A stretch of DNA of 64,000 bases from Escherichia coli. GTDB lineage: Bacteria; Pseudomonadota; Gammaproteobacteria; Enterobacterales; Enterobacteriaceae. Where the stretch lies: assembly GCF_051903065.1 (NCBI RefSeq), contig NZ_CP178438.1; one strand, 5' to 3'. Under the pieces are notes generated by a model. The model was not told the DNA's origin. It made no database searches and worked only from the letters and a program-made list of their open reading frames with translations. How positions within the stretch are numbered: the first letter of the stretch is position 1; each line of letters starts with the position of its first letter. Position numbers and translations under genes: made by a program. This document shows positions 30,935 to 36,208 of this stretch, one piece after another.

Positions 30935-32518
30935 ATGGAATGGATTGCCGATCCGTCTATCTGGGCCGGGTTAATCACGCTGATTGTGATCGAACTGGTC
31001 CTCGGCATTGATAACCTAGTCTTTATTGCCATCCTCGCCGAAAAACTACCGCCGAAGCAGCGCGACCGCGCACGGGTTACCGGGCTGTTGCTGGCGATGT
31101 TAATGCGCCTGTTACTGCTGGCGTCAATCTCCTGGCTGGTCACCCTGACTCAACCGCTATTCAGCTTTCGCTCGTTTACCTTTAGCGCCCGCGACTTAAT
31201 CATGCTGTTTGGTGGTTTCTTCTTGTTGTTCAAAGCCACGATGGAGCTGAACGAACGGCTGGAAGGGAAAGACAGCAATAACCCCACGCAACGCAAAGGT
31301 GCGAAGTTCTGGGGCGTGGTGACACAAATTGTGGTACTGGACGCCATCTTCTCACTCGACTCGGTGATTACAGCCGTCGGGATGGTCGACCATTTACTGG
31401 TCATGATGGCCGCCGTGGTTATCGCTATCAGCCTGATGTTGATGGCCAGCAAGCCGTTAACGCAATTTGTTAACAGTCACCCGACCATCGTTATTCTCTG
31501 CTTAAGCTTCCTGTTGATGATTGGCTTTAGCCTGGTGGCGGAAGGTTTCGGCTTCGTCATTCCGAAAGGCTACCTGTACGCTGCCATTGGTTTCTCGGTG
31601 ATGATCGAGGCGCTCAATCAGTTGGCTATCTTTAACCGGCGACGTTTTCTTTCCGCTAACCAGACGCTGCGCCAGCGGACTACCGAAGCGGTAATGCGCC
31701 TGCTTAGCGGGCAAAAAGAAGATGCGGAACTGGACGCCGAAACCGCGTCCATGCTGGTGGATCATGGTAACCAGCAGATCTTTAATCCGCAGGAACGGCG
31801 GATGATTGAGCGGGTACTTAATCTTAACCAGCGTACCGTCAGCAGCATTATGACGTCGCGCCACGATATTGAGCATATCGATCTCAACGCGCCGGAAGAA
31901 GAAATCCGCCAGTTGCTGGAGCGAAATCAGCATACGCGGCTGGTGGTTACCGACGGTGATGACGCAGAAGATTTGCTCGGTGTTGTTCACGTTATCGACC
32001 TGCTACAACAGTCTCTGCGCGGCGAACCGCTCAACCTGCGGGTGTTGATTCGCCAGCCGCTGGTGTTCCCGGAAACCTTGCCGTTGTTACCTGCCCTGGA
32101 GCAGTTCCGTAATGCCCGCACGCACTTTGCTTTTGTGGTGGATGAGTTTGGCTCGGTGGAAGGGATTGTGACATTAAGTGACGTCACTGAAACCATTGCC
32201 GGTAACTTACCGAACGAAGTGGAAGAGATCGACGCCCGCCATGATATTCAGAAGAATGCGGACGGTTCCTGGACGGCGAATGGTCATATGCCGCTGGAAG
32301 ATCTGGTGCAATATGTGCCGCTGCCGCTGGATGAAAAACGTGAATATCACACCATTGCCGGGCTGTTGATGGAGTATTTGCAGCGTATTCCAAAACCTGG
32401 CGAAGAAGTTCAGGTAGGGGATTATTTGCTTAAAACGTTGCAGGTAGAAAGCCATCGCGTGCAGAAGGTGCAGATTATACCGCTGCGTAAGGATGGCGAG
32501 ATGGAGTACGAGGTGTGA
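30935..32518 (+). CDS. yegH: Inner-membrane protein YegH (TerC-family membrane domain plus CBS/CorC-type domains)
   Basis: Track ORF is 549 aa; likely start [13 protein letters not shown]... (527 aa). Confidence 0.88.
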
Positions 32519-32780
32519 TGGTATCGGTCATTTTACCCGATGCTGCGTAACGCCTTATAACTTCAGCAATGAAGCGTTGTCTGTGGTACATGGACATTAC
32601 AGCGGGGGGGTGGGTCCGGCTGTAAATCGCCGAATCGTTTCCTGTGGCCGGGGCAGCCCACATGGATGTGGGCTGAGGGCGCGTTTTACAGGGATAATGA
32701 GATGGACGCTCCAGATTTTACGGTATCAAAGTACCAGACTGGATCGTTGCAATACGTCCTGAAAAATTAGGAGCGTCCAC

Positions 32781-33806
32781 ATGAAAGTATCAACTCTTGG
32801 TATCGACCTGGCAAAGAACGTTTTTCAGCTTCATGGTGTCGATCATGAAGGCCATACTATTTTGCGTAAAAAGCTCACCCGGGCTAAGTTTGTTCAGTTT
32901 GTGATTCAACTGGAACCTTGTCTGATTGGCATGGAAGCCTGCTCATCCAGTCATTATTTTGCGCGATTATTCACCCGCTATGGTCATGAGGTAAAACTCA
33001 TACCTCCGCAGTATGTGAAGCCTTATGTGAAAACGAACAAGACGGATGCAGCAGATGCTGAAGCAATCTGCGAAGCGGTAACCCGTCCGAATATGCGTTT
33101 TGTTCAGATAAAAAACGAAGAGCAGCAGGCCGTTTTAGCGTTACACACTGAACGGGGAATACTTATCCGTGAGCGGATTGCCTGTGCCAATAGTTTAAGA
33201 GCCACACTTGCTGAGTTTGGTATTACGATTGCGGCCGGACAAAGCCATTTAACCCGTGAGCTGCCAGCCATTCTGGAGGATAGCGAAAATGGTTTATCTC
33301 CCTTTGTCAGAACCAGCATCTACAGACAGTCTAAACATATCCGGGAACTTGAAGAACAAGTTAAACAGGTAGAAGAAGCTCTGGCCTCCTGGTATAGAAC
33401 GCAGGAAGCCTGCCAGAGAATGGCCAAAATCCCGGGGGTTGGCATGCTAACGGCCACTTATGTGGTAGCAGCAGTGGGTAATGCCCGACAATTCAGTACC
33501 GCAAAGCAGTTCGCTTCATGGCTGGGGCTGACACCAAAGGAACATTCCAGCGGCGGGAAACAGCAACTGGGAGGGATCAGCAAACGTGGAGATGGATATT
33601 TCCGATACCTGCTGGTTCACGGCGCACGCGCACTTACCGCCTGGGTCAACCGAAACGGCGCGGTTGAGGAGAATTCCTGGCTTCAGGGACTCCTTGAGCG
33701 GAAGCACTACAATGTAGCTGTTGTCGCCATGGCGGCAAAAACAGCGAGGATCATGTGGTCAATGTTGTCACACAATACTGAATATCAACCTCGGCAGCTC
33801 GCCTGA
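32781..33806 (+). CDS. IS110-family transposase/recombinase (DEDD N-terminal domain plus Transposase_20 C-terminal domain)
   Basis: 341-aa ORF: N-terminal MKVSTLGIDLAKNVFQLHGVD and C-terminal IPGVGMLTA...GLTPKEHSSGGKQQLGGISKRGDGYFR motifs characteristic of IS110-family recombinases. Confidence 0.85.
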   Translation: MKVSTLGIDLAKNVFQLHGVDHEGHTILRKKLTRAKFVQFVIQLEPCLIGMEACSSSHYFARLFTRYGHEVKLIPPQYVKPYVKTNKTDAADAEAICEAVTRPNMRFVQIKNEEQQAVLALHTERGILIRERIACANSLRATLAEFGITIAAGQSHLTRELPAILEDSENGLSPFVRTSIYRQSKHIRELEEQVKQVEEALASWYRTQEACQRMAKIPGVGMLTATYVVAAVGNARQFSTAKQFASWLGLTPKEHSSGGKQQLGGISKRGDGYFRYLLVHGARALTAWVNRNGAVEENSWLQGLLERKHYNVAVVAMAAKTARIMWSMLSHNTEYQPRQLA

Positions 33807-33839
33807 CACAAGGTCAGTCAATCTGACGAGGTGCTGAAA

Positions 33840-34060
33840 AAAAGTTAACGTCCTGGTAGGTGCAGGTGACTTCAGAAGATGGCAAAACAGGTAAGACCGC
33901 AGGCAGGATACACCGAGAGGTAACAAGGGCAAGTTAGCCCGTAGAGGATGATTGGTACCTGCCTGGCGGATTTCATCATGGTTCGGGATAAAAATCCCAT
34001 CAGAAACCGGATATATGGCTGCACCTACCCGTTTTATTACATAACTGAAGAAAGCATTGC
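33840..34060 (+). ncRNA. Candidate IS110-family guide RNA (bridge/seek-type) in the 3-prime non-coding flank
   Basis: No ORF; long-range complementary 11-mers ggtaggtgcag (33855-33865) and ctgcacctacc (34021-34031) plus internal helices; inferred by analogy with IS1111-group elements. Speculative. Confidence 0.3.
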
Positions 34061-34297
34061 ATTCCGGGAGCGTCCATATATGTTACCTCGTGCCCGTACC
34101 CGATAGCCGCAAGGAATAAGATGAGGGAACCGCGCCAGCGGCGATTTACCGCCGGGAGCCCGGGTTGCCAGGGTGGTGGCGATTGAGCCACCCTGGCACG
34201 TTCACCGGCTTGAGCCTTCCATAGTAGCGAGGAACATCAAGTGAACGGAACAGCCTTCGATCTTACATATTCAGAATATAATGGTGCCGCCGCGAAC

Positions 34298-34336
34298 GCC
34301 TGATGCGACGCTTTACGCGTCTTATCAGGCCTACAG
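34298..34336. repeat. REP element
   Basis: gcctgatgcgacgctttacgcgtcttatcaggcctac just downstream of the asmA stop. Confidence 0.85.
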
Positions 34337-34354
34337 GACAGCTCACCAGGTAAC

Positions 34355-36208
34355 CTACATCTTCTCCAGCAACTTCTTCACATCTTTGCCATTGCGGGAA
34401 TCTTTATTCCGCTCGGCCCAGTCATTCAGGCGACGTTTCGCTTCGTCCTGTAGATGTTTGCGCAGCAGCTGGTCCACTTGCAGGCTGTAATTGAGTTGCT
34501 GCCAGTTGCCATAAACCCGCAGCGGTACTGGCGTTTCTTTGAGGAAATCAATCAGTTTACTTTCCCCGTTCCAGCCACCCACGACCCGAATATCAAACTG
34601 GGTGTCGCAGGTTTGATCTGCCAGATTCAACATGCCTTCCCCTGTCAACGCCAGCACAGGCGATTGACCTTGCATGTCGTTTAACGTCACGACGCCATCC
34701 TTCAACGTCAAATCGGTGGTAAAGCGGTCAAGACGCGTTACGTTATCGAAGTTTTCAGCGGCCTTCACATCACCACCATTACGTTCTACCGCTTGCTGAA
34801 TCATCTGCTGGAAGTTCATCCCTTGCATGCGCGTATCGGCCATTTCGACATGCGCCGTCCCCTGCCAGTTGTGGCGGAATGCGTCGGCATCTATGTCAGC
34901 ACCGGAGAAATCACCAGCCAGTGACATCTTTCCGGTCAACGAAATCGGATAGTTAAACGCCTTCAGAATGGTGCCAATCTCAACGTTTTCCAGCCGTGGC
35001 TGAAAGTTTATCCGCGGATTTATTGATGTCGCGTCCAGCGTGCCCGGCAGTGAAACCTGTCCACCGTTAAGTTTGCCCTGCAGTTGAGTAATTTCCAGCA
35101 AACCCGACTTGTTGGTCATTTGCGTGGCAACATCTGTAAAATTCATTCCGCGCCAGCGCACGTTACTGGCCTGCAACAAAATATCAGCCGTAAAGCCTTG
35201 CAGTCCCTGATAGGCCGGTTCATCAATACGCGAAGAAATAACCGGGCGCGGCAACGTTGATTGGCTCTGCCCCTGCTGCGCGGCACCGTTTTCACCATTC
35301 GCGGTTTCATTAAGCGGGATGAGGTTGTCAAGATTCAGTTGCGGGAATTGCAGTCTCAGCTGCCATTCCGGTTTCTCTGTCAGCGTGACCTGTGCTTGCC
35401 CGCTCAGCGTACTATCATTGGCGGTCAAACTAATTTGGTTAAATGAAAGGCGTTTATGTGACTCCTGCCACTGGGCCAGGAAACTCCCCTGCCCCTGAAT
35501 ACCTTGTTTTGGTAAATCGGCACCCTGCAACTGCCAGTTAATTTGTTCAATAGCCGCCGTTAAATCATGCGGATAATCAGAAGCATCTACCGTACCGTTA
35601 AGGGATATCGTGAGATCGCGCTGATCGCGATTAACCCGCCCGGAGAACTCAAATGAGCCACGATGTTGGGGATCTTGTTCCATTTGCAGGCGGATATTGC
35701 GGATTGTCACCTGCTCGTCATCTTCATGCTGGAACACCAGAACGCTGTCCGCCACCTTAAGACTGGATATATCAAACGACCATCCGCGATCGTCTGACAG
35801 ATCCGGCAAGGTATTGTCGCGCGGTGCAACCGGAGCGTCTTCACTGCGCACCGCTTCCGTCTGCGGCGTCAGTTGGATCACTGCCCCTTTTAGCATCACC
35901 TGCTTAACGCTCAGTTGATGACTCAGTAGTGGTAAAAGCGCCACGTCCAGACGCATGTTATCGGCGCGAACCAGTGGCTGGCTTGCGCCCTGGGCGGTGA
36001 GAGACATTCGCCCGGAGAGGATACTAAGCTGCGGCCAGACGTGCCAACGCAGTGGCCCGTCGAGCTGCAATTGATAACCGCTACGTGCAGCAACTTGCTT
36101 GACCATATAGTCGCGGAAATCATTCGGATTCACCAGCAACACTAACGCAGATAACCCGGCCACCAGCACGACCAGGAGTATCATCAGCGTCGTCAGAAAT
36201 CGTCTCAT
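34355..36208 (-). CDS. asmA: Outer-membrane assembly protein AsmA
   Basis: 617-aa ORF with N-terminal membrane anchor; position and length as in K-12. Confidence 0.9.
   Translation of the reverse strand: MRRFLTTLMILLVVLVAGLSALVLLVNPNDFRDYMVKQVAARSGYQLQLDGPLRWHVWPQLSILSGRMSLTAQGASQPLVRADNMRLDVALLPLLSHQLSVKQVMLKGAVIQLTPQTEAVRSEDAPVAPRDNTLPDLSDDRGWSFDISSLKVADSVLVFQHEDDEQVTIRNIRLQMEQDPQHRGSFEFSGRVNRDQRDLTISLNGTVDASDYPHDLTAAIEQINWQLQGADLPKQGIQGQGSFLAQWQESHKRLSFNQISLTANDSTLSGQAQVTLTEKPEWQLRLQFPQLNLDNLIPLNETANGENGAAQQGQSQSTLPRPVISSRIDEPAYQGLQGFTADILLQASNVRWRGMNFTDVATQMTNKSGLLEITQLQGKLNGGQVSLPGTLDATSINPRINFQPRLENVEIGTILKAFNYPISLTGKMSLAGDFSGADIDADAFRHNWQGTAHVEMADTRMQGMNFQQMIQQAVERNGGDVKAAENFDNVTRLDRFTTDLTLKDGVVTLNDMQGQSPVLALTGEGMLNLADQTCDTQFDIRVVGGWNGESKLIDFLKETPVPLRVYGNWQQLNYSLQVDQLLRKHLQDEAKRRLNDWAERNKDSRNGKDVKKLLEKM

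Follow-up and report, generated by a model that had tools for sequence, protein, structure and literature searches.

The IS1111 family of insertion sequences (IS) is recognised by perfect or near-perfect subterminal inverted repeats (sTIR) of 11-13 base pairs (bp), beyond which the left end extends by 7 bp and the right end by 3 bp, a transposase 330-350 amino acids (aa) long with the motif GL-P----S(t)G, a longer non-coding region (NCR) downstream of tnp, which codes for the transposase, and an insertion that is specific and oriented (PMC11187229). The RNA guide of the family, the seekRNA, carries a match to the top strand of the target and then a match to the bottom strand (PMC11187229). Here, we analysed a 64-kb stretch of Escherichia coli DNA (contig NZ_CP178438.1; the window) in which an open reading frame at 32781-33806 sits between yegH and asmA. 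We consider it likely that a single copy of ISEc81, which is an element of the IS1111 type, is present in the region, inserted in the loop of the second hairpin of a host repeat resembling the Rfam motif TwoAYGGAY, such that the outer copies of a motif found three times form the ends of the element, the middle copy forms one arm of the outer helix (P1) of the transposase leader, and the guides lie in the 3' NCR. The element is of a known kind, a catalogued IS1111-type sequence with the defining ends of its family, and to that extent the finding is largely ordinary; the gain for annotation is that ISEc81, which pipelines label just as 'IS110 family RNA-guided transposase', now has its ends, its target, its orientation and the place of its guide fixed.

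The boundaries are directly supported by the comparison of empty and occupied sites. At yegH-asmA, the empty site of strain E66 (locus L002) reads ...TTTTACAGGGATGTTACCTCG..., whereas the occupied site reads ...TTTTACAGGGA/TAATGAG...CCATATA/TGTTACCTCG... (slashes mark the junctions), and a second pair at lysO-aqpZ, empty in K-12 NCM3722 (locus L091) and occupied in locus L010, gave an identical junction. The 2-bp AT shared at the junction allows the equivalent placements 32694-34079 and 32696-34081; in the placement used here, 32695-34080, the left repeat is preceded by exactly 7 nucleotides (nt) of the element, TAATGAG, and the right one is followed by exactly 3 nt, ATA (Table 1). No true target duplication was found at ISEc81 insertions, only the shared AT being ambiguous. 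All nine occupied loci, from at least four sites, read ...ACAGGGA/TAATGAG...CCATATA/TGTTACC..., with one orientation and one position in the same repeat; the fetched loci were yegH-asmA, ybaP-copA, lysO-aqpZ and the recombinant pairs dusC-aqpZ and lysO-yohP. Of 5426 complete E. coli genomes, 175 have the 1386-bp unit at 99% identity or more, each with 1-4 copies, and ISEc81 occupies yegH-asmA in 76 genomes. We also observed the arrangements dusC-IS-aqpZ and lysO-IS-yohP in loci L001, L008 and L009, as against lysO-IS-aqpZ in L010; these arrangements imply that parts of the chromosome were inverted when two ISEc81 copies, or their target repeats, recombined. Copies of ISEc81 would also mediate inversions between insertion sites.

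The transposase matches the Pfam domains PF01548 (DEDD_Tnp_IS110, 2.1e-15) and PF02371 (Transposase_20, 1.1e-24) and the NCBIfam model NF033542 (IS110 family RNA-guided transposase) with 358 bits, the cut-off being 140. Its residues 249-258 read GLTPKEHSSG, of which G249, P252, S256, S257 and G258 are invariant in 16 relatives. With 335 of 341 aa (98%) identical to the ISfinder ISEc81 protein, taken from the supplement of Siddiquee et al. 2024 (PMC11187229), and six substitutions, the element is, as judged from the protein, an ISEc81 isoform within the range that ISfinder allows for isoforms. In the literature searched, ISEc81 is mentioned in resistome surveys only and no mechanistic paper was found.

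The 10-mer GGAGCGTCCA has three exact copies in the window and no others (0.09 expected by chance), and none of 100 shuffles of the window contained three or more matches. A preliminary description of this DNA, made from the letters alone, had counted the motif three times in the element, and this was borne out, the outer and middle copies all lying inside 32695-34080. The sites it gave for the first two copies (32702-32712 and 32770-32780) are correct, but each range is one base too long for a 10-mer, and the middle copy, said to abut the start codon, is set off from the ATG (32781) by the single base C32780. The suggestion that the outer pair could be the sTIR of an IS1111-group element agrees with what we found: ATGGACGCTCC and GGAGCGTCCAT make a perfect inverted repeat of 11 nt (32702-32712 and 34067-34077, 100% complementary), 7 and 3 nt from the ends mapped on empty sites. 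It had also been proposed to check whether the motif lies within the mapped element and is conserved in other copies of the same IS, and it does so and is unchanged, ATGGACGCTCC and GGAGCGTCCAT being identical in the eight of eight E. coli copies sampled. All five of the IS1111 properties are thus present in this copy (sTIR, extensions, transposase length and motif, NCR and oriented insertion), with an NCR of 274 nt on the 3' side against 86 nt on the 5' side. The IS110 group sensu stricto is defined by a long left end with the bridge RNA and by the lack of a long sTIR, whereas here the sTIR is as long as 11 bp and the left end, of 86 nt, has no guide for either target or donor.

The flanks of the element belong to an unannotated host repeat of about 230 bp; 5425 of 5426 E. 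coli genomes have it, the copy number being 3 at the median and 8 at most. A perfect 10-bp palindromic stem that had been noticed in the 'upstream flank' of the element does exist at 32654-32675, where the arms CAGCCCACAT (32654-32663) and ATGTGGGCTG (32666-32675) are 100% complementary with 2 nt between them. It is upstream, as described, but the element begins at 32695, which leaves the hairpin 20-41 bp outside, and part of that flank is host DNA. Since the hairpin is present in empty sites and the same flanks occur at all nine occupied loci, it is target context and not a feature of the IS; it belongs to the host target repeat. Searches of the window for the host hairpin and for the cognate target, which in the host repeat is GGGATGTTACCTC, found neither of them at any other place.

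The uninterrupted repeat aligns over its full length with Rfam RF01731 (TwoAYGGAY), scoring, in two divergent copies, 31.5 bits (E = 0.012) in L002 (521-664) and 30.6 bits (E = 0.0086) in L091 (821-960), such that neither copy reaches the gathering score of 43. In this alignment, the palindrome is the first AYGGAY hairpin, and ISEc81 lies inside the loop of the second, ACAGGGA/UGUUACC. The loop of hairpin 1, AUGGAU, fits AYGGAY; hairpin 2 in E. coli has the loop AGGGAU and a mismatched stem. Homologues in Jejubacter, Serratia and Pectobacterium have both hairpins with compensatory changes, as in the hairpin-1 homologue of Jejubacter, CAGCCAGAC-AAGGAU-GUCUGGCUG. The rejoined flanks of related elements in Serratia, Yersinia (ISYen1), Dickeya (ISEch3), Pectobacterium and Jejubacter (loci L092, L094, L095-L097, L098, L099 and L102) contain the same kind of hairpins, again with compensatory changes in the stems, and the insertion point in these relatives is always after the GGA of an A(R/Y)GGA(Y) loop. 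The whole ISEc81/ISYen1/ISEch3 clade seems to target this motif class of two-hairpin repeats. The GGA loops of TwoAYGGAY have been proposed as CsrA-binding sites (PMC4333381), and the loops of the host-repeat hairpins, ACAUGGAUGU and ACAGGGAUGU, resemble such sites in sequence. An unannotated, Rfam-like orphan motif present in essentially all E. coli genomes is now linked to a mobile element.

Most E. coli, including strain R1 (locus L003) and K-12, are without 178 bp of the yegH-asmA spacer in comparison with E66 (L002; window 32540-32694). The missing 178 bp covers both hairpins of the repeat and has the direct repeat TACCCGAT at its borders; from these sequences, the difference looks like a deletion removing the ISEc81 target at yegH-asmA. 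In loci L005 and L007, a RelE/ParE-type toxin gene, truncated beside the repeat, and a helix-turn-helix antitoxin-like gene lie just to the right of the IS, before asmA.

For the 3' NCR, a consensus fold was computed from nine relatives, in which 17 of the 43 pairs have changed on both sides, and the complementarity of its guide segments to the target covaries among elements. The segment equivalent to GAGGTAACA, the target guide T, fits each relative's own right flank: TACAGACG in Serratia, GAGCCGC in ISYen1, TTCGCCGCGT in ISEch3, AGTACG in Pectobacterium and ACGGCA in Jejubacter. The guide-flank match of L098 was weak (6 nt, one wobble) and was not counted as support. Among the ISEch3 copies of Dickeya dadantii CP002038, guide and target are TTCGCCGCGT and cgcggcgaa at L095 and L096 versus TTCGCGGCGT and cgccgcgaa at L097, and this one-base guide difference is, by its sequence, a natural compensatory change between guide and target. 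At the position of the second target guide, B, the outlier L103, with the flank GGTGG/TG, has GGTGGTG. The order in ISEc81, T (33917-33925) and then B (33946-33950), follows that of the seekRNA, the ISEc81 RNA being predicted. Two donor guides can be put forward tentatively. The segment AUUUCAU covaries with the left end, ATGGGAT going with AUUCCAU in L103 and ATGAAAT with AUUUCAU in L094 and L095, but it is tentative because RNAalifold puts it in a helix; for the likewise tentative AUAUAUGG, L103 has AUGUAU at the same position and the right end CCATGTAT. It appears from these sequences that target and donor recognition is encoded by a structured RNA of the 3' NCR, as in other IS1111 elements, and we infer that this RNA is expressed.

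The middle copy of the motif lies in the leader of tnp, where the left repeat and the sequence before the ATG are complementary over 17 nt (TGGACGCTCCAGATTTT, 32703-32719, with AAAATTAGGAGCGTCCA, 32763-32779). The pairing runs past the sTIR (GAUUUU with AAAAUU), an extension left unaccounted for by a DNA site that occurs a third time. The predicted fold of the leader has an energy of -30.2 kcal/mol (z = -3.4), the outer helix P1 covering the Shine-Dalgarno (SD) sequence GGAG and enclosing the hairpins P2 and P3. Relatives sampled at 45-88% transposase identity have the same plan, that is, a TAATGRN extension, a left repeat RTGGNCNNCYCC, a spacer of 62-72 nt and a complementary copy 1-4 nt before the ATG, and the repeat and its copy change together (ATGGACGCTCC with GGAGCGTCCA, ATGGTCGCCCC with GGCGACC, GTGGACGGCTCC with GGAGCCGTCCAC and ATGGACTCCTCC with GGAGGAGTCC). 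The minimum-energy fold pairs the zone of the left inverted repeat (IRL) with the zone before the AUG in 41 of 42 distinct leaders, and the mean energy of this duplex is -17.2 kcal/mol with native and -12.5 kcal/mol with foreign partners, none of 10000 permutations being as good. In an alignment built from sequence only, 78% of the cells are paired, versus 36-43% with slid partners, and 14 of 22 pairs have changed on both sides; in an alignment of 68 distinct leaders, fitted to the covariance model, the share is 83.6%, versus 31-38%, with 18 of 22 pairs so changed. The structure was drawn by folding each sequence separately, by a vote over alignment columns and with a covariance model, and the model finds a match directly upstream of tnp in nearly all loci. 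RNAalifold on a plain MAFFT alignment of the leaders recovered P2 alone because the copy before the AUG is out of register there, and an Rfam scan of 32000-35000 at permissive thresholds assigned neither the leader nor the 3' RNA to a family, its only matches being a spurious microRNA and the sub-threshold naRNA4 match given below. Across transposases that are just 45% identical, the sequence of P2 and of its 3' tail (CGGCAUC..GUGCCAAAGU) hardly varies, and such conservation may point to the binding of some factor, perhaps the RNA of the recombinase or the recombinase itself. Matches of the covariance model away from a matched tnp were also seen (L065:2317-2409, L056:1281-1369, L048:3681-3781 and L026:473-564); such matches may mark left ends that stand alone or in tandem, or may belong to other IS copies.

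In the fold-back inhibition of IS10 and IS50, the ribosome-binding site (RBS) of the transposase messenger RNA (mRNA) is buried by pairing and translation is limited. We propose that ISEc81, once inserted in its one fixed orientation into the hairpin-2 loop of the TwoAYGGAY-like repeat between yegH and asmA, with the outer motif copies and their 7-nt and 3-nt extensions defining its ends, would use a comparable device: the middle copy, which lies over the SD, would pair with IRL in the transposase mRNA to give P1 of a three-helix leader, P1 would bury the RBS, and the structured 3' NCR RNA would direct the recognition of target and donor. Most likely, judging from the predicted fold, the leader occludes the RBS and keeps translation of the transposase low. 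A precedent is ISPpu9, in which a structure of the 5' untranslated region (UTR) buries the RBS of the transposase mRNA (PMC8450116). In the circular intermediate, the predicted junction is ...GCGTCCATATA/TAATGAGATGG..., and the joining of the ends would form TTGCAT-16 nt-TATAAT, in which TATAAT, a perfect -10 by sequence, spans the junction (34079-34080 plus 32695-32698). In the integrated copy, we found no sigma-70-like promoter on the plus strand, and for a promoter formed at the circle junction, as for a seekRNA, ISEc11 is the precedent (PMC11187229). Opening the RBS region is calculated to cost about 16 (15-17) kcal/mol in read-through transcripts versus 11-13 kcal/mol in junction transcripts. 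ISEc11 is still mobile with cargo inserted after bp 50, which by analogy suggests that the inner leader is dispensable in cis for transposition. If the leader acts as proposed, edits or moves of the left end would change transposase expression, which could matter for the engineering of IS1111-type systems. On the minus strand, the first tnp codons contain a promoter-like TTGCCA-17 nt-GATACT (32814..32786), a consensus match only; such a site would drive an RNA antisense to the RBS and leader, reminiscent of RNA-OUT of IS10 and Asr9 of ISPpu9.

Several points weigh against this account of the leader and its promoter. The predicted -35 of the junction matches the consensus in only three of six positions, and the predicted start of a junction transcript, at about 32705, falls inside IRL, such that the leader hairpin would persist in these transcripts too. 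In IS10-type fold-back, the 5' arm lies upstream of the element's own start, so that read-through transcripts alone are repressed. A clean switch of that type, acting on read-through only, was considered for ISEc81 and dropped on account of this start within IRL. The alignment of 68 distinct leaders, being fitted to the covariance model, leans towards structure, and the covariation statistics take no account of phylogenetic relatedness. The SD of many relatives keeps an A that mismatches IRL (columns 17:95), which makes the pairing imperfect, and the conservation of P2, going by its sequence, exceeds what simple occlusion of the RBS needs. Moreover, the covariation of P1 taken alone would also be expected from three protein-binding DNA sites. 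The middle copy could then be a third recombinase-binding DNA site (serving autoregulation, modular circles that run from IRL to the internal copy, or as an alternative end) instead of an RNA partner, which would fit with its sequence being that of the right inverted repeat (IRR), with its covariation, in relatives, with the sTIR, such as a protein site present in several copies would show, and with wobble pairs in P1 that do not clearly outnumber mismatches; ISPpu9 is described as using internal copies of its end boxes for modular circles (PMC8450116, PMC12288879). We regard such a DNA site as unlikely, because the complementarity continues outside the sTIR-like core (columns 20-24 with 89-92), the copy is always 1-4 nt from the ATG and over the SD, and the hairpins that P1 encloses, P2 and P3, have been kept through compensatory changes, which argue for a folded single strand. 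The E. coli variant A78G (IS position 78, window 32772), present in two of the eight copies sampled (L001 and L008), also speaks for pairing, since GGGG in place of GGAG makes a weaker SD while P1 is kept through a G.U pair.

The conservation of a structured RNA in the leader could also be expected if the 5' flank, 32634-32780, encoded the guide or bridge RNA in the manner of the IS110 group, as in IS621, an alternative that the preliminary description had raised, and a few IS1111-like elements do have upstream NCRs (PMC11187229). Half of that interval, the hairpin included, is however host DNA; the 86-nt leader has no complementarity to the target beyond chance 6-mers and its sequence stays constant as the target varies across relatives, whereas the segments of the 3' NCR covary with target flanks and donor, and the asymmetry in NCR length is of the IS1111 type. 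A guide in the 5' flank is therefore very improbable. We give still less credit to a coincidence, in which a GGAG RBS with no link to the repeats would make up the third copy, and the palindrome would be a hairpin of the IS, either a chance one or a terminator: GGAG is a generic SD and short repeats are common, but the match is 10 of 10 where 0.09 would be expected per window, it is conserved and covarying in more than 40 relatives, and the palindrome, which lies in host DNA and is found in empty sites, matches a hairpin in Rfam and is not followed by a T-run. The preferred reading, with the middle copy as an arm of the leader helix and the guides in the 3' NCR, can be extended to the proposal that the leader is a family-wide three-helix riboregulator of IS1111 and that the ISEc81/ISYen1/ISEch3 clade is specific for the GGA of TwoAYGGAY-like, CsrA-site-like repeats of Enterobacterales; taken together we hold this extension only tentatively, with rather more doubt than belief. 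If true, the orphan TwoAYGGAY-like motif would gain its first biological partner. Pairing of IRL with the RBS is not described in the literature searched, which did not cover Partridge & Hall 2003 (PMC219399), and a left repeat that also serves, in a leader that is conserved and covaries, as the anti-SD arm, together with a clade that targets TwoAYGGAY-like loops, goes slightly beyond that literature.

Table 1. Coordinates of ISEc81, its host repeat and the predicted RNA elements in the window.
Feature	Position	Strand	Remarks
ISEc81 isoform	32695..34080	+	1386 bp; empty versus occupied sites at yegH-asmA and lysO-aqpZ
Left terminal extension TAATGAG	32695..32701	+	7 nt; TAATGRN in relatives
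IRL, left subterminal inverted repeat ATGGACGCTCC	32702..32712	+	also 5' arm of leader helix P1
IRR, right subterminal inverted repeat GGAGCGTCCAT	34067..34077	+	followed by 3-nt extension ATA, 34078-34080
Copies of GGAGCGTCCA	32703-32712; 32770-32779; 34067-34076	minus; plus; plus	exact match search
P2 hairpin GGUAU-CAAA-GUACC	32722..32735	+	highly conserved; 96% of cells paired, 4/5 pairs changed on both sides
P3 hairpin	32741..32759	+	sequence variable, position conserved; 3/3 modelled pairs changed on both sides
P1 3' arm AAAATTAGGAGCGTCCA	32763..32779	+	contains middle motif copy 32770-32779 and Shine-Dalgarno GGAG 32770-32773
Transposase/recombinase gene	32781..33806	+	341 aa
Predicted bridge/long-seekRNA domain	33855..34029	+	closed by GGTAGGTGCAG and CTGCACCTACC; fold z = -2.9
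Target guide T GAGGTAACA	33917..33925	+	complementary to top strand of right target flank TGTTACCTC, 34081-34089
Target guide B GGATG (GGAUG)	33946..33950	+	same sense as left flank plus core GGA/TG; after GGGC..GCCC hairpin
Candidate donor guide AUUUCAU	33970..33976	+	complementary to left-end ATGAGAT (32697-32703), one G.U pair
Candidate donor guide AUAUAUGG	34011..34018	+	matches right end CCATATAT
TTGCAT, possible -35 of junction promoter	34057..34062	+	matches 3/6; read from sequence
Host TwoAYGGAY-like repeat, left half (target, not IS)	32620..32694	+	uninterrupted in empty sites of E66 and K-12 NCM3722
Hairpin 1 of host repeat	32654..32675	+	stem CAGCCCAC and GUGGGCUG, 8 bp, loop AUGGAU
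Host TwoAYGGAY-like repeat, right half (target)	34081..34148	+	inverted repeat with 32616-32632

Farther to the right, just before the asmA stop codon, lies an element resembling repetitive extragenic palindromes (34259-34331), which scores 33 bits with Rfam naRNA4, below the gathering score of 59.5.

Set beside the systems already described, the element stands closest to the ISfinder entry ISEc81 (IS110 family), whose host is likewise E. coli, a likeness judged on the transposase protein. The closest other named relatives are ISYen1/IS1667 of Yersinia enterocolitica, with 68-69% aa identity, and ISEch3 of Dickeya dadantii, with 65%; both have the identical sTIR ATGGACGCTCC and the same leader plan and insert after GGA in A(R/Y)GGA(Y) hairpin loops, but their right-flank targets differ from that of ISEc81, with guide segments to match. 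The experimentally studied seekRNA elements ISEc11, ISKpn4 and ISPa11 (PMC11187229) share with ISEc81 the sTIR, the 7-nt and 3-nt extensions and a guide RNA in the downstream NCR, and likewise have the top-strand and then the bottom-strand match in the RNA and a promoter at the circle junction, both of which are predicted in ISEc81; their transposases are distant from that of ISEc81, and the target of ISEc11 is GTGAAAATACTG, whereas that of ISEc81 is the GGA loop of a TwoAYGGAY-like hairpin. IS621 and the IS110 group (PMC11208160) also rely on a structured RNA, in which one loop is for the target and one for the donor, to guide a DEDD recombinase, but the bridge RNA is in a long left end and their subterminal inverted repeats are just 2-3 bp, in contrast with the short left end, the 11-bp sTIR and the RNA in the right end of ISEc81. 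The host repeat is like TwoAYGGAY (RF01731) in having an outer stem and two hairpins, with AUGGAU as the first loop and an alignment over the full model, and differs in its scores of 31.5 and 30.6 bits, below 43, and in its second hairpin, which has the loop AGGGAU and an imperfect stem. As for the leader, the 5' UTR of ISPpu9 (PMC8450116) and the fold-back of IS10 and IS50 resemble what is predicted for ISEc81 in that a sequence near the left end pairs with the RBS; in ISPpu9 the UTR is 245 nt and there is an antisense RNA, Asr9 (PMC8450116), whereas in ISEc81 the leader is about 80 nt, the 5' arm is the subterminal repeat itself, and the predicted start from the element's own promoter falls inside that arm.

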